A stretch of 63,024 nucleotides of DNA, the filler included, from Nemertoderma westbladi (Eukaryota > Animalia > Xenacoelomorpha), in NCBI GenBank assembly GCA_032718475.1. It is 4 parts of 4 records of this genome, joined end to end, with 100 filler letters (N's around TTAATTAATTAA, not from the genome) between each part and the next. Parts side by side here need not be neighbours in the genome. Positions count along the whole stretch, not along the records: positions 17,437 to 33,992 come from JAUCBJ010001558.1; 3 more parts are not named here. The stretch is one strand, 5' to 3'. Made by a program: the position numbers and the translations under genes. This document shows positions 12,801 to 39,150 of this stretch, piece by piece. A model generated the notes under the pieces. The model did not search any database. It worked only from the letters and a program-made list of their open reading frames with translations, and had not been told where the DNA came from. How positions within the stretch are numbered: the stretch's first letter is position 1; each line of letters begins with the position of its first letter.

Positions 12801-15800
12801 GAAATTTCTTTTTAGTTATTTTATTTTTGCTGTTTCCCAAAAGCCATATAAATGTTTGTGTTAGATTACCTTCATATATTTGGAGTAGTTCACTATTTAA
12901 TTTATAGCTATGCCCTTTCCCAACCACACATAAAGAAGTAATATGAAATCTAGGGGACCATAAGTATGCCACACACGAATTGCTTGCCATTTCAAACTCC
13001 CCACACATCAGTTGCTTCTGGAAATGAATAGCCACCTGAACATTATCAGGCATTGAAAGTATTATCAAGCATTGTTCAAATTTTGTTAGTCCTTTTACAA
13101 TGTATTCCCAGTCATAGAGACTTGATGATGCATTAGGACTACTGCAATACCAACACCAAAATAGTGACCATTGTCGAATATGCATATTTGGTATGAATCC
13201 TTCCAGTTTGGCTATGTTGAGGATATCTGATTTATATAAATCATTAAAAACGACATTACGTGGAATTCCAAGATCAAGTGCATGAATCAGTTGTTCTGTA
13301 CTGAATTGATTGAATCGAATATATTTTGAAAACTTTACCAATTTCGGTATAACCTCATCATGGAAAAGTGACTGCAATTGACACCAAATAGCAACAAAGT
13401 TAAATATATAATAATCACTCAAAGTATTATCTCTGGTTGTCAACATATCCCATATAAATTCTTCTGAAATATCACCTAAGTATTCAGTGCCATTTTCTAT
13501 ACCTTCTTGTATGGTTTCATTTTGTATTTCATTTGTGAACTTTAATGCCTCATCTAGCATTAATTTCCATACAGGTACAAAGTTTTTTGATACTGTGGCT
13601 GAAACAGATTTCAGACTATGAGGAATTTCAACACACTCGCCCGTTTTGGCACCATCAATAGCTCTAGAAAACAACTGACCTAGCCTGATGCATTCACTAC
13701 ATCCCACACCTTTCATATCAGCCCATTTTCTATAGAGACTATCAATTAGACCAACAACACTTTGTGTTCTATTCTGCTTAGCAAAGTAATCTATTATCCT
13801 TTCAAATGTGATGTTCCCAGATGGTTTGGATATTGCATCAGGGTAGTCATATGGATCTATTGTATGAGGTGGTATAAGATCTGTATCCCAGCTTACAAAA
13901 TACATATCACCATCCAAATCTGAGCCTGCAATTTCATTCGAATGGGGTCGCTTTCCTGATACAGGAAACACAATGCAATCTACTAAATCATTCTCCATTT
14001 CATAAAAAGATTCATTTTGTGAGTAATCTGTTGAATCTACTGCTCTCAAGACCCGTATGTCACCACGCAAGTAGCATGGGTTCTTACCAACCACAACTTT
14101 GCTTCTGATTGTCACAGGTTTTCCTTTGATGGTTGGACGAAAAAAACATTGACCATATTCCAGAATTCCATATGGGTCACATATTCCATACACATTTCTA
14201 GATTCTTCTATCAACATCCTCAATCTCTTAACTTCACTTGATTTATTATCCCTCCCTTGTATAAGTTTACTTCTTATTTGCTTCAGTTGTCTCTTCAAAT
14301 ATTCAGGCTTATACTGATGAGCATTCATAACTTGAAGTGCCCAATCAAATTTATTTTGCCATAATAGTAATGTAACTGCAGCTTCATTGTCCGTAAACAT
14401 GGCTTTCACTAATGCAAAATATTTCTGTTGTTTTTCTAAAAATATTTCATCAGGTACTCCACATGCGGATAGCAATGATATAAACTGCCAATTCAGATGA
14501 CCATAGGTGTAAGGTTTCGAAAATCCAGCCAAACCCAATATTACTCCTGCAGTTACTTCCTCAGGGACATGAAACTTTTGCATTGATGGTCTTACTACCA
14601 TGCCATCTTGCTCTACTAGTTTGCTATTAAGAGAAACAACTCCTTTGCATCCTTGATATCTGATCTGATATACTGAAGGTAAATAACCATTTAGGAATTG
14701 AATTTCATCAGCGCCATCTGCAGCTTTAAATATATTATTTGCTAAATGTGTCCCTATCAACCCACACCCATCCGTAAAGTTGAATTTTTTGTCGGGTGTT
14801 TCTATGTCATTTTCTGCTTTTACATTATTTGGATTTATAGGGACAGTCATAATAACAGCTGAAAAAAGTAATCCAATACGTGCTATACGCTTAGATACTG
14901 TTTTTATGTTGTTGAAATTCCCAAAAGATTGCAGGACTTCTTCTATTTCTGTAAATGAACCCTGGAACATATAACATTTCCTTGCTTTTAATCCACTACT
15001 ACTACATCCTATAAAGTTGTAACCCTTACCCATTATAATAATTCCATTAATAAGCAATTTATATACAAGGTTCGGTTTTATCTTTGAAGAAAATGCTAAT
15101 AATATCAGCGGAGTTGTCCCAAGAACTTGTATCATTCTATTTGTCTGTGGAAATGGAATGGTAGTCCAGTTTTGATCAATTTCATCATCATGAAATGCAA
15201 TTGTCCTTATTGTAGTATCTGTAGTTTTCTCTTTATGTTTTAACTTCCAATAGGGTAAATGAATCCTACTTGGTGTGATGGTATCATATTCTAAATGGAA
15301 CTTAAGGGAACATTCACCACATAAAGCATTTCGCAGCCATTTTAGCCTTTCATCAATACTACCCTCAGCGAGGGAAAAATATGGAATACCAAGGCCTTGA
15401 AATAATTTTTCAAACAAATGTGTAAATTTCATAACCTCTTCAAAGGAATCATGAACAAGTCGGACATCATCAGCTGGGCCTGTATCTGAAAACCATGGGT
15501 AAACAATAACAACAAGACATTTCCTATAGTGTTCAATACACTTCTTTGTATAGTCAGTTGTTTGGAGAGTCAACTTTTGTTCATATGAGCAGTAATATTC
15601 GGTATATATCAACGGATCAATTCCTCGATCAGATATGAAAGTATCTGGGATGGGTTTGTCACGAAAGTACTTTTCTTGGAATGAACATTGTTGTTTCATA
15701 ATCCTGTGTTGTAATTCTATAAAGTATTTGCAATCAGTTTTGACTGATTTTCTCAGATCTTCACTTGATATACGATCCTTTATCATGATATTCCGAGCTA

Positions 15801-15900
15801 TTTCTGATATAAGTGGTACTTGTAACTGATCTTTAAGTTTCGTGGCTAACGTAGTTTTTCCAGTCCCTCCAGCACCCATTAGAATAATAGGTGGTTTCAT
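9895..15900 (-). CDS. 2001-aa fusion: P-loop kinase (AAA_28/NadR-like) + cellular RNAi-type RNA-dependent RNA polymerase + UPF1-like SF1 RNA helicase
   Basis: Kinase: GAGGTGKTT and ISDRG. RdRP: FTDGCGLI, YQIRYQGCKGV, RPSMQKF, KNPCYLRGDIR, and AGSDLDGDMYFVSWD (DLDGD at 13906-13920). Helicase: HGPPGTGKT (11248-11271), AETNLAIDN, IIDEAT, IGDPDQL, QHRMHP, SPYIGQ, IDGFQGRE, NVLLTRAR. Single uninterrupted ORF. Confidence 0.95.
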   Translation of the reverse strand: MKPPIILMGAGGTGKTTLATKLKDQLQVPLISEIARNIMIKDRISSEDLRKSVKTDCKYFIELQHRIMKQQCSFQEKYFRDKPIPDTFISDRGIDPLIYTEYYCSYEQKLTLQTTDYTKKCIEHYRKCLVVIVYPWFSDTGPADDVRLVHDSFEEVMKFTHLFEKLFQGLGIPYFSLAEGSIDERLKWLRNALCGECSLKFHLEYDTITPSRIHLPYWKLKHKEKTTDTTIRTIAFHDDEIDQNWTTIPFPQTNRMIQVLGTTPLILLAFSSKIKPNLVYKLLINGIIIMGKGYNFIGCSSSGLKARKCYMFQGSFTEIEEVLQSFGNFNNIKTVSKRIARIGLLFSAVIMTVPINPNNVKAENDIETPDKKFNFTDGCGLIGTHLANNIFKAADGADEIQFLNGYLPSVYQIRYQGCKGVVSLNSKLVEQDGMVVRPSMQKFHVPEEVTAGVILGLAGFSKPYTYGHLNWQFISLLSACGVPDEIFLEKQQKYFALVKAMFTDNEAAVTLLLWQNKFDWALQVMNAHQYKPEYLKRQLKQIRSKLIQGRDNKSSEVKRLRMLIEESRNVYGICDPYGILEYGQCFFRPTIKGKPVTIRSKVVVGKNPCYLRGDIRVLRAVDSTDYSQNESFYEMENDLVDCIVFPVSGKRPHSNEIAGSDLDGDMYFVSWDTDLIPPHTIDPYDYPDAISKPSGNITFERIIDYFAKQNRTQSVVGLIDSLYRKWADMKGVGCSECIRLGQLFSRAIDGAKTGECVEIPHSLKSVSATVSKNFVPVWKLMLDEALKFTNEIQNETIQEGIENGTEYLGDISEEFIWDMLTTRDNTLSDYYIFNFVAIWCQLQSLFHDEVIPKLVKFSKYIRFNQFSTEQLIHALDLGIPRNVVFNDLYKSDILNIAKLEGFIPNMHIRQWSLFWCWYCSSPNASSSLYDWEYIVKGLTKFEQCLIILSMPDNVQVAIHFQKQLMCGEFEMASNSCVAYLWSPRFHITSLCVVGKGHSYKLNSELLQIYEGNLTQTFIWLLGNSKNKITKKKFPKAINVQEDDDDLQISGKLSISLIRFNKNIHTEKQHPILNKQNYDAVEIFVSTIPPAAAYFDSYVDNSVLTHDCDNGDVKFEEDSEDDVSDDEEDFLIKSKLDITDHIGEDSQIHESHLEILACNCHVVSFRQALWKMLSLDVNMSHITVLCIFELLQNICSNIGHLPRAIFQISVEISDICDILIELVCNKPMLGDIVLVVTYMSRLGFHDKVELFLSKLHCSPQTVLWKEDDVCQELAHWKTWAMCTNRNSLMLVKCLYRTLSNTTDQTSHIDLISAMTKTQCSINILLMQSIYFVLEVNELQERMYLKESKETDSPNTITNLLLCKDESPEPTTQTRIEFYCSSGTSPLGNFTLGQSVLITRKLDIQEILCTKNWVSHSTIGRILKVCIAPLIITVELDSPETFAITNCLKKGKKWLWRLDIIGNTIAYERIKNACILLADSKGSSDVCNVLPIFEIRQTSSNDAECTNTGMENVREHHKDINKLNLNAAQSAAMAAALRDRLTLIHGPPGTGKTYVACEIIRQRILTTTNNNKKILVVAETNLAIDNIVRRLLQMKIMVVRIGNRAQIANDVYSHSLEYLLEQECTRKGKDAQQRDQYGKMHRNTRIAKTIIKSAEVVCSTCIGIGESIVEKSSVIFSFVIIDEATLVTEPLLMPALVHGCEQVVLIGDPDQLSPLIMTSSVTKIIEDEMPELPNVSQLSSSLFHKLHNFNYNVYFLNEQHRMHPALAEFPSNTFYNGMLTSAITEEERPTPGFPFPKSNLPMCFVNVEDGYERHSGMSFRNDIEIDIVIDVIEVLLNENKDLLLSYISVLSPYIGQVRAIRSRLDGNGWQGISVNSIDGFQGRENEIIIFSTVRANRYGNLGFTDDKLRVNVLLTRARRAIIGIGNTSTLMASTIWSSWFEKCPTMEVDNVRRQLEGVPKGPKQSRVHSHGNRRRPEGSGRGQSERQRPKNPTFMDYACQQKK

Positions 15901-16461
15901 TGTGTTAATAATAGGTCAGACTCAGTTCATCCTTATTCATAATTTTTGCTTATCGTTATAACACCTGCACATGATTGCAGTTGGTCAATTATATTTGTTT
16001 ATGGATTATTATGATAGATCCCAGATGGCAATAAACTTATGTATGACAACAAAACATAAAAGAATAGTATTGTGAACTACACTACCCCATATATTTGGGT
16101 GCATGTAAAGAGCGGACTGCGGACTACGGACTGCGGATTGTCAATTAAAAGCCCAAATATGCGCGGTCAATTTGAATTTATAGCATTATAATGTAAGCAT
16201 CCGCTCTTTGTTGTCTGGACAAACGGCGGAATGAAGCCAGAAAATTGTAACCTGATTGGCTCAATCATTTACATAGGCCCAAAGGGAACTTTCCTGAATC
16301 CTCTTATTGGCTTAAATGTTTTCATTGTGACACATAGAGATGGAAACACAAACCATATTCCAACATTACTACAGTTGTACAGTATAATTAATTATACTGT
16401 AAGTAATTAAGTAGGCCTACCGGTGCGGTATCAATTAAGCTATGCCGTCAGCAGGGATCTA

Positions 16462-17535: not shown

Positions 17536-20500
17536 ATGGGAGATAAAACCTAATTGTCAACAGACCAATTACAGGCCATCATTAACGCTGCTGTCTCTGC
17601 AGCCGTTTCTCAGATGGCAAATGTACCGTCAAATTCAGCTCAGAATGAAACAATACGGGGACTACAGATCCCTATTCTTGATTTGGGCATCGATAAATCT
17701 CCAAAAAGTTTTTCTGACTGGAAACTGACTTGGGAAGACTATGCCAATCTCTCCGGTTTGACCACTTTCCCAGAATCAAAACAAATGCGCGTCCTTCGAC
17801 TGGCTCTATCCGCTGAAACCAGGGATATTCTAAACGCATTTGATTTACCTGAAACCAGCACAGTTCCAAATGCCATTGCTCGTTTGGAGACTTATGTAAA
17901 TGGTGCAGTCAATATAACAATGGAACGACGAACATTTCGCCTAAGACACCAGGAGGAGGGCGAATCCATAGAGGACTGCTATCTTGCTCTGAGAAACCTA
18001 GCTCGTTCATGCAAATTCAATGACCCGGAAATCGATCAGTATAACCAAGCACTAAAAGACCAACTAGTTGAAGCTCTCACTAATGAAGAGGACAAACAAA
18101 AGGTCTTGAAATTACGGGATGCCCCTTTGAATACCATAATTGATGAGTTAAGAGCTGAAGAATCTGCATCAGCCAGTGCTGCTGCTATTGTTAAAAAGGA
18201 ACCCGCCGTCAATGCTGCTAAGTCTTCCACCTACAAAGGAAACAAATGGAAAAATAAGGCAACTCAAAATGATGATACAACATCACACAATCAACAGAGT
18301 AAAAGGTTGTGTAAATGGTGTGGTGGAACCTGTTCATCAAAGGATGTTTGTCGTGCTAAAGATAAGATATGTGGCTTCTGCGACATAAAGGGCCATCTAT
18401 CATCTGTCTGTAGAAAAAAGAAATACTCAGGATCTCCAGAAACCCACGATATCTTGACTGTCACTATCATGCGATCAGAAGCATCTCAGAGCCCATCTGT
18501 CAAAAGCTCCCCTACAACTATCATTGGTGTACAACATCATGATTTTAAAACATCAATTCCCATGCTTCCTGACTCTGGAGCTGACCTATGTGCAGTAGGA
18601 CCAAAATTTATCAAACTTCTAGACATTGATATTGACAATCTCGCCCCTTCACCTTATATAACCACAGTCGCGGATGGTTCTAAAATGTACCCATTAGGCA
18701 AGGTGCGAAATGTCACACTAACAAAAAATAATCAGAAAGTGGAAACAGACATTCACGTTTTCCCACGCGTCTCAACTCCACTTCTGTCATGGACAGTAGC
18801 AAAGAAATTCAAGATAATTTCACCAACATTTCCAGAGCCATGGGTAACTGAAACCTGTTCAAAAAATAGTCCACCATTAAGCAATAAATCTCAAACAGCA
18901 TCAAATACAAACCAATCAAGAACTTATGCAGAAGTTGTTTGTCAACAACCTCTTACAAACACTTTTCAAACCAAAAACGCTGCCACTAATAAAGAGAATA
19001 CCAATAAAAGGGATGAGGACAAAATTAATATTTTAAAGGAGTTTAAAGATGTATTCTCCGATGAAATAAAAGTAATGCCAGGTGAACAATATCACATCGA
19101 CTTAAAACCAAACGCCAAGCCGTTTTCCATTAGTGCACCAAGGACAGTTCCATTAGCATATCGTGATAGACTCACAGCTGAATTAGAACTGCTCACATCT
19201 AAGGGAATAATAGAAAGAGTTAGTCATCCAACCGACTGGGTGGCTCCGATTGTTGTTGCTCCAAAAAAAGGCTCTGATAATATACGAATGTGTGTTGATC
19301 TCAGTCAACTAAATCGCCACGTACGCCGTGAACGTTATTGGACACATTCGCCAATGGAGGCTGTAGCAGGAATCCCAACCACTTCCCAGTGGTACACTGT
19401 GATTGACGCTGTTAAGGGCTATCACCAATGTCCACTTGATGATGAGTGAAAAGATCTTACAACTTTCCTCACACCGAATGGGAGATACCGCTTTCTCAGA
19501 GCACCATTTGGAGTTAGTTCAATCAGTGAACACTATAACCGAAGAATGGATGAAGCTTTGGAAGGAATTCAATTCGTGAGAAAAATTGTAGATGATGTAT
19601 TGATATTTGGAGCAACCTACGACGAATTAATTAGCCGAACACATGCTGTACTACAAAGATGCCGTGAACGGGGTATCACTCTTTGTCAGAAAAAGCTTCA
19701 ATTTGCTCAACAAGAAGTATGTTTTGCTGGCTATGTAATTTCAGGAGGCTCATACCACACAAATCCAGATATCACAACAGCAATAAAATCATACCCAACA
19801 CCGACAAACAGAACACACATTCGCTCTTTCTTTGGACTTGTAAATCAGGTCTCACCCAAGACATCTGCTATTGAACCTCTTCACCATTTACGTGAACTCC
19901 TCTCTACAAAGAAAGACTTCATATGGGATGCAACACATGACAAAGCTTTTGCACAAGCCAAAGAAATACTCTCAGAGGCAATATCATTAGGATTCTTCTC
20001 AGCAAACCATGACACCCAATTGATAACAGATGCCTCTAGAATAGGTCTTGGCTATATCCTCCAACAACGTCCTCAAGGAGAGACTGGTGAGTGGACAACT
20101 ATACAAGTTGGATCTCGTTTCCTAACAGACACTGAAACAAGATATGCAGTAATAGAACTTGAACTACTTGGCATTGCATGGGCTTGTAAGAAATTGGATA
20201 AATTTGTACAAGGATTAGATTTCACTATTCTTACAGATCATAAGCCTATTGTGCCAATCTTAAACAGTCACCGTTTAGACGAAATAGAGAACCCACGCCT
20301 CCAACGTCTTCGTCAACATCTTATGCCTTATGCTATTACAGCAACATGGATAAAGGGATCTACCAATATTGCAGCAGATGCACTATCACGAAATCCTGTC
20401 AATGGCGATAATGAAACAGTAGATATGGCCGATATTGAACCAATTGATGTGTCTACAAGGATATACGACTCAAATAAATCGCCTTCTATACATGAAATCA

Positions 20501-21275
20501 AACTATTTTCATCCGGCACAAGAGATGAGGATCTGCGAGTTGCTGAGCTGAGAAAATATGCCATTGAGGATGGTGAATACAACCACCTTCGTGAAATAAT
20601 CTCCAAAAGTGGTTTTCCAAATACTCCTTCTGAACTGCCAGAGAATATTAGGAAATATTGGAGTGTCCATTCCGATCTTACTGTTGAAGATGGTCTTATC
20701 CTACTAGGCTGTCGTCTACTAGTCCCAGCCGCTCTTCGTGCAACAGTCTTATCACGGCTCCATGAAGCACATCAAGGTATCACCCGTACAACAGAGAGAG
20801 CACAATTCAGGATCGCCTACCAGCTCACCGTTCTTCCTTCGACCCAAAGTGGATAAAACAACATCGTACAATTGATGAACGAACAACAAATACACAGGTG
20901 AAGGCTAAAGCATACTTCGACATACATACACGGCCCAATGACTCATTCAAAATAGGGGCAAATGTTTTAATATGGAATATGATAACCCGTCGGTGGAACT
21001 TATCTGGTAGCGTTATAGAGGTAATAAACCCACGTAAATACGTTGTTCGAACTACCAGCGGGCGTATTCTAACACGCAATAGAAAACATCTACATCGCCA
21101 ACAAATACTACCTGCTGCCATTCCGGTGAACGTCAAACCGCACGTAGATCACTCGGAAAACCCACAACCAATGAACACTATGGGAAAACCAATACATTCT
21201 ACAACATGTCCACCTCCGCGTAGAAGTTCTAGGCAAGTTCGAAGACCAATACGCTTAATAGAGGAGATGGAATAA
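17536..21275 (+). pseudogene. Disrupted gag-pol: gag, zinc knuckles, protease, RT, RNase H, integrase remnants
   Basis: CGFCDIKGHLSSVC knuckle, DSGA protease, IVDD RT, ITDAS RNase H, HEAHQG integrase start. In-frame TAA at 17551 and TGA at 19447. The integrase DDE core is missing after ~20806. Confidence 0.88.
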
Positions 21276-21339
21276 AAACTGTTTTCATTCTAAACCTGAA
21301 TCAATAACTGAACAATACACCGATTCAGGCTGGGGGAGG

Positions 21340-21538
21340 TGTAGGATAGTGATCACTATCAGTATCAACTGTATGTACATATAAATGTAAACCTATATAA
21401 GTAACAAGGGAGATTATTATTCTAGAACTGAGATGAAAGAACATAGCTACACTATACGAATATCTTGTATTCTAATATTTATATAATTAAAGTAATACAT
21501 GAAGATATACTCAATGTCACTTCTTTCATTATCATACA
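21340..21538 (+). repeat. 3' LTR (199 bp)
   Basis: Starts TGTAGG directly after the PPT and ends ATCATACA like the 5' LTR remnant. Confidence 0.85.
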
Positions 21539-22790: not shown

Positions 22791-23084
22791 CACTAAGTCA
22801 CCCTTGTGAAGAATACCATAATTTCACTTTTCGGTCGACTTTTTATTGGAATTTTATATAAAGATTTGTCATTTTTTTTAATTTATCTTTATTAAGTGTT
22901 TTATAGCGCTTTATTTCTGTCTTATAACCTGTACATATACTAATTTGTTTATTGTTTTGGTTAGATTCAGCCCTTCTGTAACCTGTGTTTTTGGTGAAAA
23001 CCTAGTATTCTTCACATGGGGGTAACTGCAAAGTGAAAATAACAGCAGAAAGTCTGATATTCTTCACATGGGCCCACTAAGTCA
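22791..23084. mobile_element. Non-autonomous TIR element (MITE, possibly Merlin-like) with target-site duplication
   Basis: Ends CCCTTGTGAAGAATA and TATTCTTCACATGGGCC, flanked by direct repeat CACTAAGTCA (22791-22800 and 23075-23084). A related copy lies at ~5093-5331. Confidence 0.65.
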
Positions 23085-23378
23085 CATCTTGTGTAGTTGT
23101 TAAATCCGTTGCCTTCAATTCACATGTATCCGGGAGGTCGTGGGTCCTGGACTACTGGGGCGCTTTTCATCCTTAAACGGTAGCTCAATGAGTAAACCAG
23201 TTTGCCATGGGAGTATAGTTCCGGGTGGACCACACTGGAAATAAGTTATCAGACTTTGTGCGTAATAATACCTGGCACAACGGCCGAAGAAAACTTTACT
23301 TCACTATAATAGCAGTATTATATGATAGATAAATATATCAATTTTTGAATAAAGTGATAGCGATTGCGGGTTCCTGGT

Positions 23379-23450
23379 GGTTCTATGGTGTAATGGCTAG
23401 CACTCAGGACTCTGAATCCTGCAATCCGAGTTCGAATCTCGGTAGAACCT
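23379..23450 (+). tRNA. tRNA-Gln(CTG), eukaryotic type
   Basis: Acceptor stem GGTTCTA/TAGAACC, anticodon arm CAGGA-CTCTGAA-TCCTG, T arm CCGAG-TTCGAAT-CTCGG, no encoded CCA, T5 Pol III terminator at 23456-23460. Confidence 0.95.
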
Positions 23451-24605
23451 GTTGCTTTTTGCAATGTTCTCAATTTCTGGTGGCCTCCAGTGTTGTATTA
23501 TTCATCCCCAAGCAACTTTTTCTTTATAATAATAGATATCATATTTTACGCGATGGAGCGCTATTTTTTCATCATAACTTTTATGTAATTACAATCACGC
23601 AGCTAAGCCTGTAATCTGGTCTACTAAGTGTATAATAGCTCACAGCATGAGCCCTTTTGCTACCCCACCCCCACCTGCCCGGTACTCACACAATACATTA
23701 GGCTACACTAGCAATACTAGGTTACCAGTTCGATCCCACCTGGACGTCATTGCCGACTTTGCAAAGCTGTGCCCATCAAAAGTTATAATAATACATTATG
23801 TCATGTTTAAATTTTATAATAAATAAAAATATGCTACTATGGAAAATGTTCTACACCACAGTTTAAGTCAGATATGCAGTAGACATTTAAGATTATGTAG
23901 CCTATACCACGGTCTTGGACCTGAGTATATCGTCTATCCGCTTATCCCGTATCTTCATCTGTTGGTGCTGGGTGAAGTCTCATCTCACTGCTTACTGTAT
24001 ACAGGTAAACAGTTAAATAATCTATTCGGCTTCTAGACAGCCGATAACTTATAACCCTTCGGATGAATTCATTAATTTTAACCAACCAACCACCCCATTC
24101 TTCCTCCAAAAAATTATAATGTTTAGCGGAAAAAAAATATACGTTATAATGGTTTTAACAGTTACAGTATATGATTTATGATTTTTAAAAGATATTGATG
24201 ATAAGTGCGGATTATATAATTCCTTGCTTTTTGATTTCTATGCATGCTAATTGATGTGCAGTGCATGATATACATACAATTACTATGCGTTACTGTAGTA
24301 GTTACCTTATTATTGAGTGTATATTGTAGGGTCCATATACCCTCACCCTTTTCAAATATATGCCTTCCTTACAAGGCACTTTCACCCGTTAAACAGTTGT
24401 TTTATATTTGCAAAGGATAGAAGGATAGCACGACTGTATCATAAATGGGTGTTTAAAGTTTAAGAAACAATTCAAACCTTCCCGCTATTTTAGATAATAC
24501 CAATTTTCTATGTTCGTCAATAACTTTGTCAAAAATGAATGAAATTCAGCGAGATTTTTCATGCTTGCTAAACAGATAACTAGTAAAACAACTTTCAAGC
24601 AATTT

Positions 24606-25757
24606 TGTTTGCGCTTTTAAGACCTTTGACAGTTTAACCTGCCAAATTAGGATGTCTTTTGGATGATATATATTCTTTAGCTTATGACGAGTATTTGATA
24701 CACTACATTAGCCGAAGCCAGCCTATGCGCAATCATTCACCCGTTGGATATACCCGGGAGACTGAGTTCGGAGCTTAATGATTGATGGTGTAAGCCTACC
24801 GTATTATTCGACTGATCGTAATATATAATCTCTGACAAATATTATTCACTTTCGGGAAATATTAACAGTTCCTTTAGGACGTGGCGCTCTAAATATGTAA
24901 ACAGAGTTATGACTTAAACTAGTCACAACGAAAAGGCTATAGGTTAACGTATATGGCGCATTCTTTAGGAGATGCTTTGTTATCAGTTACAATCATACAC
25001 AATGCTGCACAATACTGCACACTAATCTGCCGACCTTCACTAAATTTAGTCACGTATAAAGAGAGCAACAGACAATTTATGTTGGGCATATGAAATAGCA
25101 TTAGATTCACTTCAAACCACTCAACATAGGTCGCAATCGTTTATCTGTAACCGGTCTCTCTAACCTTTAGTATATCAAGAAGGTGGGGTGTCTGACTATT
25201 GATCAGTATTCCGATATAATAATTCATCAACAAATATAACGAATAACCAACAGCAAAGCAGTAATGCAAGATATGAATTGCATAGATATGTATGATAAGT
25301 AAGTAGGGTTTGATTTTGTATGATTAGTTAAGATAACAGATATACGTTCTATAATTAAGCCTACTAATGTAAAGCTAAAGAATGCTGATATACGGAGGTG
25401 CCAAAGGCCGATGTTCTTAGGCTCTGGGCAAAAAACATAACACTGAACTACTGAGTTCTGTACACACCTCCAACACAGAGACAAAAAACGCTCTGATTGG
25501 TCAACCGAACAACGAGAGAACAAAGAAACAAAGAAACGTCGACGTGGCAATATCAGCTGTTAGCCGTCGTCATGGTAGCGACACTGTTTTCAAGAGTATC
25601 CAGCTTATCGCGTCACGAGATTGCGGATTATGTCCTCTAAAGTACAAATACAGTGCAAATACAGAAGAAATGACTTTTATGTCCTCTAAAACACCAGTAC
25701 AGCAAGGACACGGCCTTTTTATGCCTGGCAAACCAACTACAGAGTACTTCGGGAACA
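24606..25757 (-). repeat. LTR copy R1 of a putative BEL/Pao-type family (3' LTR of an internally deleted element)
   Basis: 24606-25633 is near-identical to 29739-30766. Similarity to R3 continues to ~25750. Boundary TGTTTGCGC reads ..GCGCAAACA on the element strand. Confidence 0.75.
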
Positions 25758-27556
25758 GGCCTAATTATTTCAGGCTCATCTACTATAGTAGGGAGTCTCT
25801 CTATTGTAATTATTTGGTCTGTGGGTTCTGTACTACCTAAGTTGGTGTTATTTAGTTGCCTTCTAACAGCTGGAGGCAAATCAGGCAATTTCTGACGTTG
25901 GAATGTTCTTTTACGTCTGCTTAAGTGAGATCTACTTCCTTTGCCTTCAGTATCGGTGGTATCGCCTTCCTCAGATGATGTATATCCCTGTCTTTTGGGA
26001 GTAGATCGATTCATCATCTGCATATTACTAGCTGTTAACTGTTTATTTATGCAGTCTTGATTCTCCTGAATATTTTCCAATTCTAATTGGGCGATCTCTT
26101 CAGCCGCTCGCCGTTCTGCTTCTGCCGCTGCCATTTCCGCTTTTCTTTCCATTTCAGCTGCTTTTCTTTTCGCTTCTGCTGCTGCCACCTTTCTTTCCGC
26201 TTCGGCCGCCTTTCTTTCGGCTTCTACTGCTGCAGCTGCCGCCTTTCTTTCGGCTTCTACTGCTGCAGCTGCCGCTTTTGCCTCTGCCGCTGCCGCTTTT
26301 GCCTCTGCCGCTGCCTCTGCCGCTTCTCTATCCACTTCTGCCGCTTTTCGTTCCGCTTCTGCCGCTGCTACTGCTGCTTTCTTTCTGTCTTCTATGCGTT
26401 TTTTCTTCACCCTTTCTTCTTGGTCTCTAGCGATGCGGAGTTGTTCATCGAATTTAGCTTGGTTCGCCGCTAACCTATCCACGTCTATGGCGTCAAGCAC
26501 ACGCTGTGCTCCTTCACTATTAGGGTTAAGTCCGTCCAACCTTCTCCTCAACTCTTCATCACCTACGAAACGCTGATAGTCTGACAGATAGATGTCAATG
26601 GCATCCCTCTTATGCGGTTTCTTTGCCGTCGCTTCACTTTCCACTTGGGAAAAAGTAGCGTCTGTTGATTCTCCATGGGTTGAGCGCTCCTCCAGCTGAG
26701 CTTTCCACTGAGCTGTTCCTTGAACCTGGCGACTCACCCGTTGAAACCAAGTCTTTACGGCAACTTGCAACGACGTGTCTTGTCTTCTTTTAGAAGCCTC
26801 CTCAAAGGCTGATAAGATTAGCCTGATTCGTAGAATTCTTTCTCTAACTTGATAAAGCAGTTGTCCCTGCTCTTGAGGTCCTTGGGGTTGTTGAAACAGT
26901 TGTTTTTCTACTCGCTCCATAGAGCTGAAGAATCCCTGTGCGTATCCGGCTGCTGACCTCTTCCACACAGCTGGATCGATGGTTTCCTTGGCTACTCCCA
27001 TCCGGTGTATGTCTTCCCAGGCAGCTTCTGATAAATCAAACGGGAGTCCGGGTCCGGGGAAGTTCCATTGCGACTCGACCATAGACTTCAGTTCTTCCCT
27101 TGTGTATCCCTCATAACTATCTTTAGTTGAGCGCTTACTTCTCGCCCAATCGATCTGGTGTTCTTCCACCGCGATCAATAACCTAGTGAGTACGGCTGCA
27201 GGAAGGATGAGAAGGGGATCCGAATAAACCGCATCCGTCATCCTTGCTCCGCGCTCGGGTGTCAGTTCTACAGTATCTTCACTACTGGAGCTGTCGGGCC
27301 GCTGAGAAATAAGTTCTTGGATCACGGGTTGTTGCTGTTCCGCTGCTTCTTGGTCCCGCTTGACCTGGGCTCGAGTGCCTATGATAGACCTACGATGTTG
27401 GACCAGCCTAGGTTCTGTTATTACTACTGGAGGGATGACCTTCCTCACAGTGGGAGGTGAACTGAACTTAGGTGTAGACGGTTCTACACCTTTATCTGAG
27501 TCGCAGATAGTTACATCTAATAAACTGTCTGACAGGTTCTGCTTAGTATCAGACAT
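25637..27556 (-). CDS. 639-aa Ala/Glu/Lys coiled-coil protein, probably a truncated gag N-terminus running into the LTR
   Basis: Long ORF lying between two near-identical LTRs, with AEAERKAA repeats. The last ~40 codons lie inside R1. No recognisable domain. Confidence 0.55.
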   Translation of the reverse strand: MSDTKQNLSDSLLDVTICDSDKGVEPSTPKFSSPPTVRKVIPPVVITEPRLVQHRRSIIGTRAQVKRDQEAAEQQQPVIQELISQRPDSSSSEDTVELTPERGARMTDAVYSDPLLILPAAVLTRLLIAVEEHQIDWARSKRSTKDSYEGYTREELKSMVESQWNFPGPGLPFDLSEAAWEDIHRMGVAKETIDPAVWKRSAAGYAQGFFSSMERVEKQLFQQPQGPQEQGQLLYQVRERILRIRLILSAFEEASKRRQDTSLQVAVKTWFQRVSRQVQGTAQWKAQLEERSTHGESTDATFSQVESEATAKKPHKRDAIDIYLSDYQRFVGDEELRRRLDGLNPNSEGAQRVLDAIDVDRLAANQAKFDEQLRIARDQEERVKKKRIEDRKKAAVAAAEAERKAAEVDREAAEAAAEAKAAAAEAKAAAAAVEAERKAAAAAVEAERKAAEAERKVAAAEAKRKAAEMERKAEMAAAEAERRAAEEIAQLELENIQENQDCINKQLTASNMQMMNRSTPKRQGYTSSEEGDTTDTEGKGSRSHLSRRKRTFQRQKLPDLPPAVRRQLNNTNLGSTEPTDQIITIERLPTIVDEPEIIRPVPEVLCSWFARHKKAVSLLYWCFRGHKSHFFCICTVFVL

Positions 27557-28869
27557 GTTTGTTTACCCAGTTGAATGCCTACTGCTATATTACAGTCTAA
27601 GCAAGTCCAGTAATTCAGTAATAACTGCTAGCCTAGTAATTAATTACCGATACTGCTACTCAGTGTAGCGTGCTATATATAATATTAGAATACCGGTATG
27701 CTTATGGTATATATAAGTATTATTACAGACTAGGTTTTTCACAGAAACCGGTATATAATTTTAGCACAAATATATATAAATATATAATAGGCCTATCGTG
27801 GATACCGGTATGCAGTTTACACTTATAGTATATATAAGTATAATTATTAACTAGAATTAATTACAGAATACCGGTATGATTTCAACCTAAAATTTATAGA
27901 AATAAATATAATAAGCCTATTGTAAATACCAGTATGTCAATTATTTTAGAATAATTGAATTTCTGAATTTTAAGGGTTACTTGGTTACTTTGACTTACTT
28001 TATTACCGTTATTTAAGCAGTAGTCCAACTGATATTGAGACCTAATTGTTGTATGGCAGGCCTACTATTTATAAATCGTTTGAGTTGATTTATAATATAT
28101 ATATACCCGTTTAATGGGTTTTTGTCAATGTTGAAATAAATGTTATTATTTCTGGGGGAGTCACTACACATAAGCTGTGCGCTCTCAGTGGAGTGCTACT
28201 TGTTAGACACTAAAACAAATAATTCTAATTTACCTAAGTTACTTAATACTACAAATTACGTACAATTCGGGTTGAGATTACAATCTCTAAATAAACACAA
28301 AAATTTAATTACAAATACAAATTTTTAGGGTAATTTTACAAGAAGTCTACTAACCAGCCTAACAAAGGGTTAGAAATCTGGTTATTACAACGGACAGGGT
28401 ACTAAGGTATTTGAAAATAATAAGTAGTAGTAAATACACTGCGTTGTCCAGATAGGAAAATACCACCGCCTGACGACCTATAGCCGTATCGCTATAGGTA
28501 CTACGTTATGTATCACGGAGTGTTCCTACCTAGAAGTTAATAGAGCTAACGTACGTGCCTATCAACCACTTTACAACACAAATATAATGCCTACACTAAT
28601 TACTTTCGGAAAGTACTGTACACTAAACCCTAAATTAGGTACAAGTACTTGTATAACAAATAATTAGTAGTTAAAAATACTTGAACAGCTAAAAGAACCA
28701 CGGCATCTGCTGGAGTGACCGGTGCACAAAATCACCAGTCTTTACCTACGCCGAGCAGCCCTGATGTAGTACCGGGGTTAGTTTAACTATAACGGTATGT
28801 ATAACAAACACAATTACTGTAGGAACAAACTTGGGGAATGAATGTTGCGAATAATCGCATAAACTCTGA

Positions 28870-29443
28870 ATAATAAATATTACGCTACGCGTACAAACTA
28901 CTCAAACAAAATGCAGACAAAATACTGACAGACTACTATCAAGCCTAAACAAACTACGGTATATGCAGACTCCGAAATGATTAAGTAGTATGCGTTCTAA
29001 CCCAGTAGTACGACTTATTCTTTAGATGGGGGTTTACCTTACAGCGATGGCTGCCCCTACTTCCTAACCGTTCTTTATCGGACAGATGCTTTGCACACAC
29101 CGAAATTTCCTCAAACCCAACAACAGCCAGACAACTATCCAGCCTACAAATTATCTAAATAAAATTATACGCTACCCGTACAGACTACACAAACAAAGTA
29201 CAGACCAAACGCTGGCGGACTCCTATCAGGCCTAAATAAACCACAGGACATGCAGACTCCAAAATGGTTAAGTAGTATGCGTTCTAACCCAGTAGTACGA
29301 CTTATTCTTTAGATGGGGGTTTACCTTACAGCGATGGCTGCCCCTACTTCCTAACCGTTCTTTATCGGACATACACTCTACATGCACTGCAATCCGTTCA
29401 GACCTAATCAACAGCTAGCCAACAGTCAAGCCTACAAATTATC
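28870..29443. repeat. 287-bp tandem duplication in the element leader
   Basis: 28981-29084 is identical to 29268-29371, while the flanks of the two units are more diverged. Confidence 0.9.
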
Positions 29444-29738
29444 TGTACAATCTGAGCAGGCTTACACGCCTTCTGCTCAATACTGGCCTACAAATAAATA
29501 AAACTTGACAGAAACAAGTAAAATCTCAATAAAAAACCAGGGCGGCCGTCCCTGATTAATTATTAAGGCCTACCGGTATATAATTATCAAAATCGAACAA
29601 TACTGATGTACCTGTACCGTAAGTACCGGTTCGGGCAGTTGGGCCTACAGGCCTACAGCAATACAGGTTACCGTTCAACCGGTACCGGTACTTTAGACTT
29701 GATTGCTTACACCGCAATCCAGAAGCAATATCTGTTAT

Positions 29739-30766
29739 TGTTTGCGCTTTTAAGACCTTTGACAGTTTAACCTGCCAAATTAGGATGTCTTTTGGATGAT
29801 ATATATTCTTTAGCTTATGACGAGTATTTGATACACTACATTAGCCGAAGCCAGCCTATGCGCAATCATTCACCCGTTGGATATACCCGGGAGACTGAGT
29901 TCAGAGCTTAATGATTGATGGTGTAAGCCTACCGTATTATTCGACTGATCGTAATATATAATCTCTGACAAATATTATTCACTTTCGGGAAATATTAACA
30001 GTTCCTTTAGGACGTGGCGCTCTAAATATGTAAACAGAGTTATGACTTAAACTAGTCACAACGAAAAGGCTATAGGTTAACGTATATGGCGCATTCTTTA
30101 GGAGATGCTTTGTTATCAGTTACAATCATACACAATGCTGCACAATACTGCACACTAATCTGCCGACCTTCACTAAATTTAGTCACGTATAAAGAGAGCA
30201 ACAGACAATTTATGTTGGGCATATGAAATAGCATTAGATTCACTTCAAACCACTCAACATAGGTCGCAATCGTTTATCTGTAACCGGTCTCTCTAACCTT
30301 TAGTATATCAAGAAGGTGGGGTGTCTGACTATTGATCAGTATTCCGATATAATAATTCATCAACAAATATAACGAATAACCAACAGCAAAGCAGTAATGC
30401 AAGATATGAATTGCATAGATATGTATGATAAGTAAGTAGGGTTTGATTTTGTATGATTAGTTAAGATAACAGATATACGTTCTATAATTAAGCCTACTAA
30501 TGTAAAGCTAAAGAATGCTGATATACGGAGGTGCCAAAGGCCGATGTTCTTAGGCTCTGGGCAAAAAACATAACACTGAACTACTGAGTTCTGTACACAC
30601 CTCCAACACAGAGACAAAAAACGCTCTGATTGGTCAACCGAACAACGAGAGAACAAAGAAACAAAGAAATGTCGACGTGGCAATATCAGCTGTTAGCCGT
30701 CGTCATGGTAGCGACACTGTTTTCAAGAGTATCCAGCTTATCGCGTCACGAGATTGCGGATTATGT
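29739..30766 (-). repeat. LTR copy R2 (5' LTR, interrupted by R3)
   Basis: 1028-bp near-perfect match to 24606-25633 that stops where R3 begins. Confidence 0.8.
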
Positions 30767-31997
30767 TCGCGCTTTCAGACCTTTGGCAGTTTAACCCACC
30801 AAATTAAGATGTCTTCTAGATATTAAATCGGTTTTTAGTCTATGACAAGTATTTGATTCACTACACTAGTCGAAACCAATCCGTGCGCGACCATTCACCC
30901 GCTGGAGATTCCCGGGAGATTGGGTTCGACGGTTTAATTTTGTTGCTATGTAAGCCTAATGTATTATTCGACTGACAGTATTATATAATCTCTGACAATA
31001 TTATTCACCTTCGGGAATATTAACAGTTCCTTTAGGACGTGGCGCTTTATCTATATAAACAGAGTTATGACTTAAACTACTCACAACGATATGGCTTAAT
31101 TATAATTCACATATATGGCGCATTCTTTAGGAATGCTTCTTTAACAGACTCACTCATACACAATGCTGCACAATACTGCACACTAATCTGCCAATCTTCA
31201 CTGATTTTAGTTACATATAAAAGGAACACAGACTGAATCATGTAGGGTCTATCAAATAACATTAGATTCACTTCAAACCACTTTAACATAAGTCACAATC
31301 GTTTATCTGTAACCCTTCTCTCTTACCTTCGGTATATCAAGAATATTGGGTTTCGGGGTTATTTATCGTTATTCCAAATATAATAATTCATCAACCATGT
31401 TATGAAGAACTGACAGTAAATAGCAGTATAAAACAACAATGAAAACACTGATAGTTATGAGTTTACAATGTTTCAGCAGTCAGTATGTATGATCAGTCAT
31501 CAGTAGTCGTTATGTAGGTTAAAGGATATATGCCCTTTATAATTAAACCTACTAGTGTAAAACTAAAAAACAGTAAAGCACAAAATACTTCCAAGCCGTT
31601 CTTTCTTTGGCTTAGGACTGAATGTAAACACTGCACATAGGCATTGCGTCATTTCTCGGAAATTTTCTGTACAAGGAGCCACAAAAACGCTCTCATTGGC
31701 TGACTGAACTGAGAGACGCCGTAGAACAAAGGAAATCAACACGTATGAATGTCAGCTGTTAACCGTAGTCATAGTAACTACTTTTCAAGAGTAGCTATCA
31801 CCCCTTTGCGTCACGAATTGCCATAGAATCATAAAATATGCCTTTCACAGTACACATACGGAGGAAATAGGTCTTAGATCCTCTAAAAACACCGATACAG
31901 CAATAATACGGTCTCTTACACTTATTAAATCAACTACAGAGTATTTTAATGTAAAAGATAATAAAAATAACGGGGCAATTCAGCAAAGGCTTTTACA
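30764..31997 (-). repeat. LTR copy R3 (diverged subfamily; 3' LTR of a second element)
   Basis: Diverged homologue of R1/R2. On the minus strand it starts TGTAAAAG after the purine tract GGGAGCGG (31998-32005) and ends GCGCGAACA. Confidence 0.7.
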
Positions 31998-32075
31998 CCG
32001 CTCCCAGAAAATGGGATTTTCAGTCTATAAAATATAAAAATCACAGTTTCTAAAACATAAAGATACTCTAAACAG

Positions 32076-33851
32076 TTAGTCTTTCTTGCGCGGACGGCGT
32101 TTACGCAGTTTCTTAAGATTAACAAGAGTCTTTTTCTCTTTGGGGCGAGCCACTTTACGAGGAGGGCTGTAGCTCCTAGGCGAAGGGTGCAATATAATTG
32201 CATCAGAAGGTGCAGGGTTACGATCGGTATACCCGCCGGTCGAGGTACCTGGTTGAGTAATATCAATCTCAGGGGAGTGAGGTCTAACGGCCTTTAGAGC
32301 GCGTCTCAAGACAGCAGCTCCTACGGGTCCTTGACGGATCGTCTGGACACTAGCGGTGGGTGGACCGTGAGTGGTGAGGAACTTTCTCGGTTTAATGGTT
32401 CTCTCCAGCTCGCGTTCTCGGGTTCGGTATTCATATGGGCGCCGAGATACTTCCTGGAGTTCAGGATGCGAGTTCACGAAAATGTCGCCATACTCAGGGT
32501 CCGTACGGATAAAATTGATCAGGTGATATGTGGTTATATCATTAGGGTTAACGTTTCTAAGGTATTTCCTGACAAACTTGGTGGAAATACACTCACCAAC
32601 ACGCTTCATTAACTCGTAACTTGGTACGCGTGTTTTCTGTTCAATCGACGCGAATAGATAAGGATGGAACGCGTAAACTCCCTCGTAAGCTCGTCCAGGG
32701 TAATAGCGATCTCTGGATTCGCAATGTAAATCTGCGTTCGCTTCCCAAGCTCGGATGTATCGCAGGGTGATCATCTCGTCTACGCTCTCTAAATCGCGAT
32801 TAAAGGGACAATTGTAACTTTCGTGTCCTTTAAGTTGGCAGTAGTGACATTGAGTCATAAATTGTGGGCAGACGGCAAATATATGAGAGTTATTAAGCCG
32901 GCAATAAGCACAATATATTTCCATCATCGGTTGTTCGAGGAAATAGGAACAAGGTACGCTCGAGTCTAGAGGAGTGAAGTGGTCTCTCGATGCGCATAAT
33001 CGACAACGTTTTCGGGAAACGTAGTTGGCGTGTCGATAATCGTACGCTGTGAGACGCTGTGGACCTTGATACCACTCTATGACATAATCATTGTCACTGC
33101 TCCGAGAAGCCGTAGGTTGAATCGCTTCGGATTCCAAGCATACTGGTTCATCCTCCAGCTGCATAGACGAAGTGGGTGCGTCGGTTTCCGTAAGTGGACC
33201 CACTGTCTGTATTTCCACGACAGAATAACCTGTAGGTATTCGGGGTCTTTGTATAACGGATGAATGTGAGTTCTGTATACAAACGTCTTGAAACACGGCA
33301 AATCCAGCGCTACTCAGTTTCTCCGCAGCTGAGTCTCTAAGACTGAGCTTGGTCAGCGCGCGATCTTTGAACTGACTATCGACGTTACGGAACGGAGTCA
33401 GAAAGCGCCGGAAACATTCGAAACGTATGAACTTATTGTGTTCGTCTAACTTGGCGAGTTTAGTTCCAAGTATTAACGGGTGAGCGCGTATGGTACGACT
33501 GCACACATCGGCTAGCCAACCGGCAAGTGCTGCGTTTTCAAAGATCGTGTATATAGCTAAGGAAGGGCGAAGTGGAACACTCATAAAGCTATATACGGCA
33601 CCAAGCGCAGTTAATGGTCCATCAAAATATAAACGGGAGTAATGATCTCCATATACTTGCTGGTAATTTATAGGATTTCCAACTTTGAAATTCCAACCAT
33701 ATTCTTGAAAGGCAAGATGTCCGATGGATGTCCGTTGTACTTTAGTAATGCCGCTGGGTGTATTGGCATACATAGTGCGAAAGAAACCTCGGCCTTCGGC
33801 CCAAGGAGCAATCAGCTGAGTATCAACGAAAGGGTATGGAATGTTCTCCAT
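32076..33851 (-). CDS. 591-aa protein of unknown family with multiple Cys/His zinc fingers and a basic C-terminus
   Basis: CRLCASRDH, CAYCRLNNSHIFAVC and CHYCQLKGHESYNC (CCHC knuckle), ending KKLRKRRPRKKD. Homologous to 53693-55279. Confidence 0.8.
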   Translation of the reverse strand: MENIPYPFVDTQLIAPWAEGRGFFRTMYANTPSGITKVQRTSIGHLAFQEYGWNFKVGNPINYQQVYGDHYSRLYFDGPLTALGAVYSFMSVPLRPSLAIYTIFENAALAGWLADVCSRTIRAHPLILGTKLAKLDEHNKFIRFECFRRFLTPFRNVDSQFKDRALTKLSLRDSAAEKLSSAGFAVFQDVCIQNSHSSVIQRPRIPTGYSVVEIQTVGPLTETDAPTSSMQLEDEPVCLESEAIQPTASRSSDNDYVIEWYQGPQRLTAYDYRHANYVSRKRCRLCASRDHFTPLDSSVPCSYFLEQPMMEIYCAYCRLNNSHIFAVCPQFMTQCHYCQLKGHESYNCPFNRDLESVDEMITLRYIRAWEANADLHCESRDRYYPGRAYEGVYAFHPYLFASIEQKTRVPSYELMKRVGECISTKFVRKYLRNVNPNDITTYHLINFIRTDPEYGDIFVNSHPELQEVSRRPYEYRTRERELERTIKPRKFLTTHGPPTASVQTIRQGPVGAAVLRRALKAVRPHSPEIDITQPGTSTGGYTDRNPAPSDAIILHPSPRSYSPPRKVARPKEKKTLVNLKKLRKRRPRKKD

Positions 33852-33992
33852 ATTCCTGTTGTATGCCCAATATGTTTTCCGACAGTGACATTGATGGTAG
33901 TGGTAGAGAGCAGGGGGAGACCTAGGTCGTATTCAGAAGTATTCCGAAATACGATCTCAGTAGGAGGATTGTTACATTCGAGGACTATCTCC

Positions 33993-34092
33993 NNNNNNNN
34001 NNNNNNNNNNNNNNNNNNNNNNNNNNNNNNNNNNNNTTAATTAATTAANNNNNNNNNNNNNNNNNNNNNNNNNNNNNNNNNNNNNNNNNNNN
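33993..34092. other. Artificial contig linker
   Basis: N44-TTAATTAATTAA-N44. Confidence 0.98.
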
Positions 34093-34239
34093 CACCGAAT
34101 CTTAACATACTCACTTAATTTAACTGCATTAATCATATTGTTTGTACTGTTATTTTACTGTCAGTTATTAATTGTACCTATTTGTTGATGGAAATATTGC
34201 TCTTTGGATAATACGGATAAATCACCCAAAATTCCCAAT

Positions 34240-34829
34240 TTTCTTGATACACTACAGGTTAGAGAGACCGGCTATACATAACAATTGCGATTTATATTAA
34301 TGTGGTGTGTATTAAATCTAATGTTATTTAGCAGACCCTACATGAGTCAATTACTGCTCTCTTTATGTGTGATCAAATATACTGACTGTCGGCAGAATAG
34401 TGTGTATGATCGTGATTGGTAACAAAGTATTTCCTAAAGAATACGCTTTATACTTTAATCATAAGCGGTATCGTTGCGTTTTAGTATAAGTCTTAGTTCT
34501 GTTTAAATAGATAGAGCGCCACGTCCTAAAGGAACTGTTAATATTTCCCGAAAGCCAATAATATCTGTCAGAGATTAATTATTAACGATCTATCGAATAA
34601 TACAGTAAGTTTACGCTGCAACCTTACACTGCAATAATAAAATTTAAGCATCCGAATTCAGCCTCCCGGGTGTAGATCCATCGGGTGAATGATCGCGCAT
34701 GGGCTGACTTCGGCTAATGTTTTGTGTATTAGCATAAATTGTTGTCGTATGCTAAAGGTGTTTTAATTAACTAAAAGACATATAAATTTTGGCAGGTTAA
34801 ACTGCTAAAGGTCTTCAAAAGCGCGAACA
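34240..34829 (+). repeat. LTR copy R4 (third variant, opposite orientation)
   Basis: Reverse-complement homologue of R1-R3, including AGAGCGCCACGTCCTAAAGGAACTGTTAATATT. Ends GCGCGAACA at 34829. Confidence 0.8.
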
Positions 34830-35207
34830 ACATGTAGTGCAAATATGATAACGAAAAGTCACCACAAAATCAAATTGAGTTTAGCACAAATTTGATAATA
34901 AAAAATCATCACTAAATCAACCTGATTGTTAGATATTATGGGTTTTCTGGGACGCTGATCACGAATATGACACTCAAAAATATCGCATTACCCAGCCAAA
35001 TTCTATTTTTGACGTTTAAAATTTTTTGATTCTTGTATTTTTCGTCCCTCCTGAAAAGCACCAAAAATGATAGTTGCGTTACCACGAATGATTTTTAACG
35101 AGTTGTATCGTGATTAGCGACGTTGAAAACCAGTATAGTTTCAGAAATACCAAACCAAAGGCAAAATTTAACAGTTTATAATTTTGTGCAATTTGTAATT
35201 TTTATTG

Positions 35208-38023: not shown

Positions 38024-38700
38024 TGGTAACTGCAGGGCGGGCGGCACTTCCTGGCTGTGGGGCCGAACGTCTGGTGATAATAGCACCAGTCTGGGTTCGA
38101 GTTCGGGGCACGCGGGGCGGGAGTCGACGCCGACGATGAGTTCTTGCTGGTTCGCTGCGGCGGGACCGGCGTCGGTTTCCCTACGGCATGGGCCGCGAGT
38201 GAGGTCTGCCAGGAGGCCTCCCACAGCGCGTCGGCCCGGTCCGCAACCCTGTTGAGGTCGCGGAAGTCCTCCTCCGCGAGTTGGAGGCGGATTGCGGCGG
38301 GCATCTGCCGGAGGAAGGCCTCCTCAAAGAGGAGTCCCGCATTGTCGTCGCCGAGGAGCGCCTGCATTTCTCCGAGGAGTTGCGAGGGGCGCCGGTCACC
38401 GAGGCCATCTAGGTCCCAGAGTCGGGCTGCGCGCTCGCGTCGGGAGAGCCCGAAGGCTTTGAGAAGTTGGCCCTTGAGTTTGAGGTACTTCTCAGTAGCG
38501 GGAGGGTTCCGGATGAGTTTTAGGAGGCGAGCGGCTGTCTCCTGGTCGAGGGCCCCCACCACATAATAATATTTTGTAGCGTCCTCGGTGATGCTGCGAA
38601 TGTGGAACTGTGCCTCCGTCTGGGCGAACCACACCTCGGGTTGGGTGGTCCAGAACGGAGGCAGTTTAATAGAAACGGCGTTGGCGGTCGCTTCGCCCAT
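37996..38700 (-). CDS. gag: Gag (CsRn1-type)
   Basis: [42 protein letters not shown] and the CHCC motif. ATG at 38700, downstream of the PBS. Confidence 0.85.
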
Positions 38701-39150
38701 TGTCGTCAACACAGTTTCGGTGGCTGTTCCAGTTCGATTGCAGGATCGTGTTGCGAGTCGCGGTCTCAAGAGTTCGTCTTGAGACACTGGGTCACCAATG
38801 TAGTGATGGGTTCTAGCCACGAAATGAAAACTTATCAAAACTCAAGTTCGAGTCTTTGCTGAAGGCATACTGCAGTACAGTCGTACAATTCTGTAGGTCG
38901 GCCTAATAACAGAATACGTTATTCTCTAGGGTTGCTAGGTAACCGTAATAACAAAGTTTTGAGACTGTATATTGTATGTGGGGCTGCCACATTTTATAAT
39001 ATTATATTTCAAAAAATTTGCAATATGTAATTATGATGTTAAAGTTATTCATCAACGCAGTCATATTAGAAATCAATAATAATACAATAACATAACATAA
39101 CAATAACAATAACAATATTATAACATTAATAATAATCAATACCGGAATAC

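Follow-up and report, generated by a model that had tools for sequence, protein, structure and literature searches.

A conserved RNA fold at the 3' end of an LTR retroelement family of Nemertoderma westbladi and its probable role in self-primed reverse transcription

Repeat family and composition of the locus

The window, that is, the whole analyzed stretch of Nemertoderma westbladi DNA (63,024 nucleotides, assembly GCA_032718475.1), consists of four assembly pieces joined by N linkers (N runs with the TTAATTAATTAA linker at 17337, 33993 and 53593), and the pieces need not be neighbours in the genome. It contains one repeat family in four copies, three of which (R1, R2 and R3) lie on the minus strand of one piece and the fourth (R4) on another. 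Below, coordinates within the copies and the elements they belong to refer to the minus strand, unless marked (+).

R1 (24606..25746, ending in ACA) is the 3' LTR and R2 (29739..30766, its 5' side cut by the end of R3) is the 5' LTR of the first element; they are 99.8% identical over 1029 nt at a spacing of 5133, and the interval between them is occupied by a 2.2-kb leader and an orphan open reading frame (ORF) of 641 codons. Near-identical long direct repeats enclosing a coding region, by which LTR retrotransposons are recognized, are found here. R3 (30764..31997, TGT...ACA) is a diverged LTR, the 3' LTR of the second element, with identity of about 81% across the 3' 670 nt. R4 (34093..34829 (+)) is also diverged (70-74%), and its 5' part is lost at an assembly gap. 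The ACA terminus is present in 4/4 copies, and the only intact start, TGT at 31997, is that of R3. It directly follows an 8-nt candidate polypurine tract (31998..32005, GGGAGCGG), itself preceded by a T-rich run. No purine tract is seen ahead of R1, and its homology to R3 stops at 25746, so the 5' end of R1 looks clipped. The left flanks, where target-site duplications would lie, are lost to the nested copy and assembly gaps. The end of R3 and the cut start of R2 share ACA at 30764-30766, a joint that an insertion of one copy into the other, joining by microhomology or a tandem product may explain equally well.

A CCAAT box (25500), common to R1 and R3, is U3-like, and the motif scan of the LTR copies revealed no AATAAA or ATTAAA common to the copies and none in R1. 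From this anatomy, we read the family as an LTR retroelement with an LTR of about 1.2 kb, represented by two partial or non-autonomous copies, the structure described below being U5-like. Six of the seven listed sequencing runs contain the stretch or part of it, none of them listed as RNA. In one of them (run X1), 7403 contigs map onto 1151 bases of R1, and hence the family comprises many variant copies. Exact-motif scans of metagenome, viral and prokaryote collections gave 0 matches; the two matches of a second-motif scan had no flanking similarity and were rejected as chance.

Among other features of the window there are an uninterrupted ORF of 2006 codons (9895-15915, minus strand) with matches to kinase-like AAA_28, eukaryotic RdRP (E 9e-106) and an Upf1-like helicase, and two unrelated broken Gypsy-type elements (17554-21350 (+) and 35168-38841, minus strand) with protease, RT and RNase H matches, the former with a clear purine tract before TG at ~21340. 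Fragments at 53870-57803 (minus strand) weakly match DUF7386 and DUF5641, and we take them to be a likely decayed BEL/Pao element. Given the known distributions, the RdRP-helicase gene, the Gypsy elements and this fragment agree with a non-vertebrate animal as host. A tRNA-Gln gene (23379-23450), a sulfotransferase fragment (39424-40095) and a 21-nt minisatellite (61700-63020) were also observed.

Open reading frames and leader

The ORF of the first element (25637..27562, 641 codons, 639 from ATG) encodes a coiled coil and runs about 100 nt into R1. The ORF upstream of R3 (32076..33932, 618 codons, 592 from ATG) carries zinc-knuckle-like motifs, and the two are unrelated to each other. Neither of them has a Pfam, PDB or homolog match beyond zinc knuckles, and gag-pol domains are thus not recognized. 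Searches with the 618-codon ORF gave one zinc-knuckle protein (E 7.6e-4), and its top Atlas score is 0.86, to CCHC-type clusters, which is under the lead threshold; nothing was retrieved from Atlas for the 641-codon ORF. Single-sequence AlphaFold models have mean pLDDT of 34.0 and 48.7. No pol gene is linked to the LTR family within the window. These copies of the element would be non-autonomous or partial.

The 2182-nt leader (27557..29738) is depleted of ATG, with 6 occurrences vs 34.9 expected (0/1000 simulations) and 30 on the other strand. This indirectly points to a selected sense mRNA. The leader also contains a 290-nt tandem duplication (85%) at 28865-29444.

Each LTR has one splice-donor-like AG/GTWAG in a homologous place (25164, 30297, 31326 and 34258 (+)), and an acceptor-like site is found at 24893-24889, where the invariant core (see below) begins. 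The 271 nt from donor to acceptor contain 5 ATG vs 2 in the next 288 nt. An intron or a subgenomic donor within the LTR is possible.

Conserved fold at the LTR's 3' end

A conserved RNA fold occupies the LTR's 3' end. The first-pass annotation had described a covarying, strand-specific, pseudoknotted structure from the comparison of R1, R3 and R4, and its motifs are indeed found where it placed them, including 34693-34698 with 34821-34826 in R4. The 38 named pairs are kept in 114/114 cells of the three copies, and in 106/114 on the opposite strand, in agreement with the claimed strand specificity. Ten of the 38 pairs vary, five of them by two-sided changes between some two copies and five by one-sided changes of the G-U type. 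When the same number of random substitutions was placed in paired columns, all pairs were kept 0, 102 and 2 times per 200000, in a test of a structure that had been picked after the sequences were seen.

The outer stem (24712..24771) consists of 12 pairs, 4 of them with two-sided changes, and encloses the inner hairpin (24758-24740). Its upper part, with 3 two-sided changes, is the top one of 187 shared helices of at least 5 bp in a blind scan; none of 40 column shuffles went beyond 2. For the three-copy scan overall, 22 helices have a two-sided change, within the range of the shuffles (mean 14.5, max 29). The inner hairpin keeps all 6 pairs but is invariant across copies; similarly, the 4 pairs of the AGAC/GUCU closure are kept and never vary. 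In the terminal hairpin (24620..24657 with the closure, in a U5-IR-like position) 4 of the 8 pairs vary, all by one-sided changes. The strand 24727..24735 pairs with 24614-24606, including the terminal CA. All 8 pairs of this putative pseudoknot are kept, but the compensation claimed for it comes down to one swapped pair of the eight.

There are only three independent copies (R1, R3 and R4), R2 being nearly the same as R1, and the single change of R2 in the structured region retains a G-U pair. The shuffle control of covariation gave 5/500 for percent paired and 32/500 for two-sided pairs, non-significant according to the note of the tool, and single-sequence folding is unremarkable (z -0.20, -1.30, -1.32). 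Contigs of four runs, which may include the window's own copies, show 17 variant places over 29739-29904, 3/76 in paired vs 14/90 in unpaired positions (p 0.019). All three variant paired positions are pair-keeping, one of them by way of loose ends. Nested folding takes either the long-range pair or the outer stem, and the former may be a true pseudoknot or a conformation alternative to the outer stem.

Further upstream lies a near-invariant 70-nt core with a C-GAAA-G loop (24823..24893), too invariant for covariation. A helix UAACUCUG/CAGAGAUUA with a bulged A (24909-24902 with 24834-24826) could enclose it; the two changes of R4 in this helix are G-U compatible, and it is absent from whole-length folding.

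Primer site and its complement

No TGG tRNA site follows the ACA of R2. The primer-site position, directly 3' of the 5' LTR (29728..29738), is ATAACAGATAT, and its exact 11-nt complement, the candidate self-primer, is found inside the LTR at 30466..30476 (25343-25333 in R1), some 730 nt before the LTR end. Of 3987 internal 11-mers only one has an exact complement in the LTR, namely that at offset 0. Among simulated LTRs, 12/5000 match any 11-mer starting 0-3 nt past the LTR end. The predicted energy of the primer duplex is only -10.5 kcal/mol. The window holds one 5' LTR, hence a single primer/site pairing was compared.

R3 differs from R2 at the homologous primer position and contains no 9-nt complement of the R2 site, contiguous or spliced, so if the R3 family uses the site of R2, R3 lacks the primer. 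In one contig of run X5, whose RNA nature is only a guess, an R3/R4-type end is followed by the first 7 letters of the R2 site; no listed contig piece spans the LTR end with 31 letters per side. A primer built by splicing was considered and rejected, as the complement is contiguous in R1 and no GT..AG joint gives at least 9 nt in R1, R3 or R4.

Flanking duplexes and long-range helices

In Tf1, according to PMC7175516, the RNA's initial 11 bases pair with the primer site, and base 11 is the last one before the RNase H cut; bioRxiv 10.1101/2022.12.06.519325 adds that priming requires three duplexes, of which two join LTR sequence to sequence next to the site. In the present family, the pseudoknot strand is predicted to correspond to the duplex before the primer site in this pretzel layout. 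The predicted downstream duplex is formed by an LTR strand, X1 (29913..29928), with the segment after the primer site (29705..29719) by 9+5 bp, the latter having an alternative local hairpin (29729-29702).

Unconstrained folding of 29945-29690 (256 nt) yields the X1 duplex at 0.99-1.0 and the pseudoknot strand at 0.73-1.0. The X1 strand is also the best partner of a 30-nt post-site probe in R1, where 0/60 control probes do equally well, and likewise in R4, a diverged copy (3/60 controls, 3/2000 shuffles). In R3 the best partner is not X1, 12/60 controls are as good, and X1 gives 54/2000 shuffles. R4 carries a tandem X1 pair (34600-34640 (+)), both members being complementary to the post-site sequence of R2. 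The purine tract and LTR start of R3 (32008-31990) resemble the post-site sequence of R2 (29724-29705), and since both segments hold GCGGTGTAA, the RNA's 3' end could be a further partner of X1.

Two more helices connect the surroundings of the 11-mer with the LTR end. The 5' strand of helix D4 (25372..25383) pairs with 24683-24672 by 12 bp, 11 of which are kept in R3, with 3 two-sided changes; that of D5 (25363..25372) pairs with 24712-24703, where 10/10 pairs are kept in R3, one by a two-sided change. Counted from the 11-mer, the 5' strands begin 20-50 nt upstream, and the strands they pair with are found 70-100 nt before the LTR end. A blind scan of the whole R1 and R3 LTRs yielded 37 helices of at least 9 bp, 11 of them kept in R3; D4 is the top one, and D5, which adjoins it, is among the next-ranked. 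D4 is the only helix with 3 two-sided changes (1 observed vs 0.12 per shuffle), and the antisense control also gave one such helix, probably D4 itself. A change at 24673 is common in the contigs of four runs; the letter at 25382 in a loose end, not linked to it, would restore the D4 pair. A GU-rich 13-bp helix (25736/24634) was discarded as likely chance.

Whole folding of the 896-nt RNA forms D4 (0.9) and the terminal hairpin; the primer/site pairing (0), X1 (0.06), the pseudoknot strand (0.07) and the outer stem (0) hardly appear in this nested folding, which cannot represent crossing helices. By copy, D4 is formed in R1 and R2 and D5 in R3, and the terminal hairpin is common to the three. 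The binding of the 5' piece surpasses that of shuffles weakly in R2 (16/300) and not at all in R3 (132/300).

Proposed self-priming and alternative explanations

The explanation we favour, and consider moderately probable, is that, once transcribed from the 5' LTR, the fold serves as an extended, Tf1-pretzel-like scaffold on which reverse transcription is self-primed, with no tRNA involved. Among the functions listed in the first-pass annotation, priming is directly supported by the 11-nt complement and the flanking duplexes, while the catalytic and IRES-like ones gained nothing. The structure it proposed is extended here by the primer site with the 25 nt past it, as well as by helices situated some 700 nt upstream.

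Transcription would start in U3, between the CCAAT box and 25385, and a 5' piece no shorter than 50 nt would dock on U5 via D4 and D5. The pseudoknot, formed by the end of the LTR, and X1, bound to the 25 nt past the site, would clamp the primer site on both sides, as the outer duplexes do in the pretzel of Tf1. The 11-mer would anneal to the site and then be cleaved at its 3' side; as in Tf1, this cut would probably fall to an RNase H domain, here that of the reverse transcriptase of an unseen partner, and minus-strand synthesis would begin at the terminal CA. If D4 and D5 form in the 5' LTR transcript, the start of this RNA should fall upstream of 25385, and the primer would be supplied by the 3' end of a piece of 50-110 nt attached through three helices. 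Two TCAGT sites (25454 and 25446) are located upstream of 25385. In R3, TATAAA (31541) precedes the primer position by about 10 nt and would put the transcription start downstream of that position, which speaks against self-priming. Alternatively, D4 and D5 may form at the 3' end of a transcript running almost to the LTR end.

The 70-nt invariant core has no place in the priming model, and this is one of the points in favour of a packaging, dimerization or protein-binding signal of the U5/leader type, with priming achieved otherwise and the 11-nt complement being incidental or structural. Moreover, the 10-mer 24799-24790 is self-complementary with G-U pairs in R1 and R4, and stems joining an LTR to the sequence beside it are general in LTR elements (PMC3601003). 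As such a signal leaves unexplained both the exact complement at offset 0 (12/5000) and the absence of a tRNA site, we regard it as unlikely instead of priming; a packaging role in addition to priming is possible. According to another explanation, the terminal ACA is where the RNA stops, and its fold marks the 3' end for recognition by a template-jumping reverse transcriptase producing head-to-tail pseudo-LTR units, which are traits of Penelope-like or telomeric-type arrays. It would account for R3 abutting R2 head to tail with the 3-nt ACA overlap, for the lack of a common poly(A) signal (none in R1) and of a purine tract at R1, and for the inclusion of the last two bases in the pseudoknot. 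It is nevertheless rather improbable, given that X1 requires sequence 3' of the 5' repeat and its complement is kept in diverged copies, that R3 has TG...CA ends and a purine tract, that R1 and R3 share the U3-like CCAAT box, and that a hammerhead core is not conserved.

The near-invariance of the core would also suit a ribozyme cutting the element RNA, e.g. freeing the primer. Its loop is of the GNRA type, and its GCCACGU run fits the HDV L3 pattern. The Rfam search proposed in the first-pass annotation matched only the tRNA-Gln gene (23379-23450), with nothing else to E 10 across 23000-36000; no conserved CUGANGA is present; a strict HDV-like descriptor had 0 matches in the four copies on both strands, and the relaxed one matched a single site, in R1 only and outside the structure. 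In Tf1, furthermore, the cut is made by RNase H (PMC7175516). All this makes a ribozyme very unlikely. Resemblances to group I and group II introns (an R-like run at 24836 and a bulged hairpin similar to intron domain D5) were also rejected, having neither matching partner elements nor an Rfam match. Least of all do we expect an IRES-like translation element: although a pseudoknotted multi-domain RNA does lie upstream of an ORF, the ORF starts 2.2 kb downstream, the purging of ATG from the leader (6 vs 34.9) fits scanning, and no IRES family was matched in Rfam. Returning to self-priming, its strongest form, in which the LTR would be a built-in tRNA substitute (a 50-110 nt 5' RNA domain that three helices would dock on U5 across 700 nt) and the core a new protein-free ribozyme cutting the primer, also seems to us very improbable.

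Comparison with known systems

Self-priming has been demonstrated in Tf1, and descriptions of it exist for elements of fungi, vertebrates and plants. The literature search, which took in PMC4600332, PMC6934838, PMC2864245 and PMC5443660 and had most subscription and primary Tf1 papers outside its coverage, retrieved neither an invertebrate self-priming element nor an internal anchored primer; for marine invertebrates, it likewise gave no non-autonomous LTR element with an RNA structure. If the self-priming explanation is true, the RNA of an element is able to imitate the way a tRNA primer docks by several parts, and in LTR elements labelled 'no primer site' the primer may be hidden within the LTR, hundreds of bases from its end. 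The coordinates given here may serve start-site, cleavage-site and probing work in an animal family that is high-copy and recently active.

The absence of a tRNA site is shared with Tf1/Tf2, Tj1 and Tosmo1-3, chromoviruses of the Tf1/sushi group of Ty3/gypsy. As in this group, an 11-nt complement connects LTR sequence with the position right after the terminal CA, and two more duplexes join site-adjacent and LTR sequence, although these are weaker in R3 and in whole-length folding. Unlike in Tf1, the complement is set back some 730 nt from the LTR end and is preceded by two covarying anchor helices, D4 and D5, so that the primer is unlikely to be the first 11 nt of the RNA. The family also differs from the Tf1/sushi group in the inserted extra domains (the outer stem and the invariant core) and in having no pol, chromodomain or recognizable gag. 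The host is a non-vertebrate animal, the group being described from fungi, vertebrates and non-seed plants (bioRxiv 10.1101/2022.12.06.519325). The start of R3 (TGTAAAA) and the copy ends (GCRAACA) do not resemble the Sushi att motifs TGTYANR and CNTNACA (Table 3 of PMC3601003). Because of this and of the ORFs without homologs, the superfamily is left unnamed.

Self-priming is predicted by complementarity outside the Tf1 clade proper as well, in the TAR lineage of plant Ty1/copia (Houba, Osr-1) and in the Tcn1 clade (PMC6317226). TAR elements are from plants and have a known pol, and no comparable extended scaffold is described for them in the passages compared. Retrozymes and Penelope-like elements with hammerhead pseudo-LTRs are likewise described as non-autonomous retroelements whose terminal repeat contains a structured RNA that is conserved. 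Unlike them, the family described here has no hammerhead core or Rfam ribozyme, and it has a repeat of about 1.2 kb and long ORFs. Retroviruses prime with tRNA, for which the present element has no site. As in the retroviral U5-IR and U5-leader (PMC3601003; reportedly also Lin and Levin 1998), a hairpin is found here at the LTR end, and a predicted LTR/leader duplex lies beside the primer site.

Membership in the Tf1/sushi group is thus not claimed. By analogy, the likeness to it most likely consists in the working mode of the pretzel, and the difference from Tf1, judged from the sequence, is most likely an internal, separately anchored primer.
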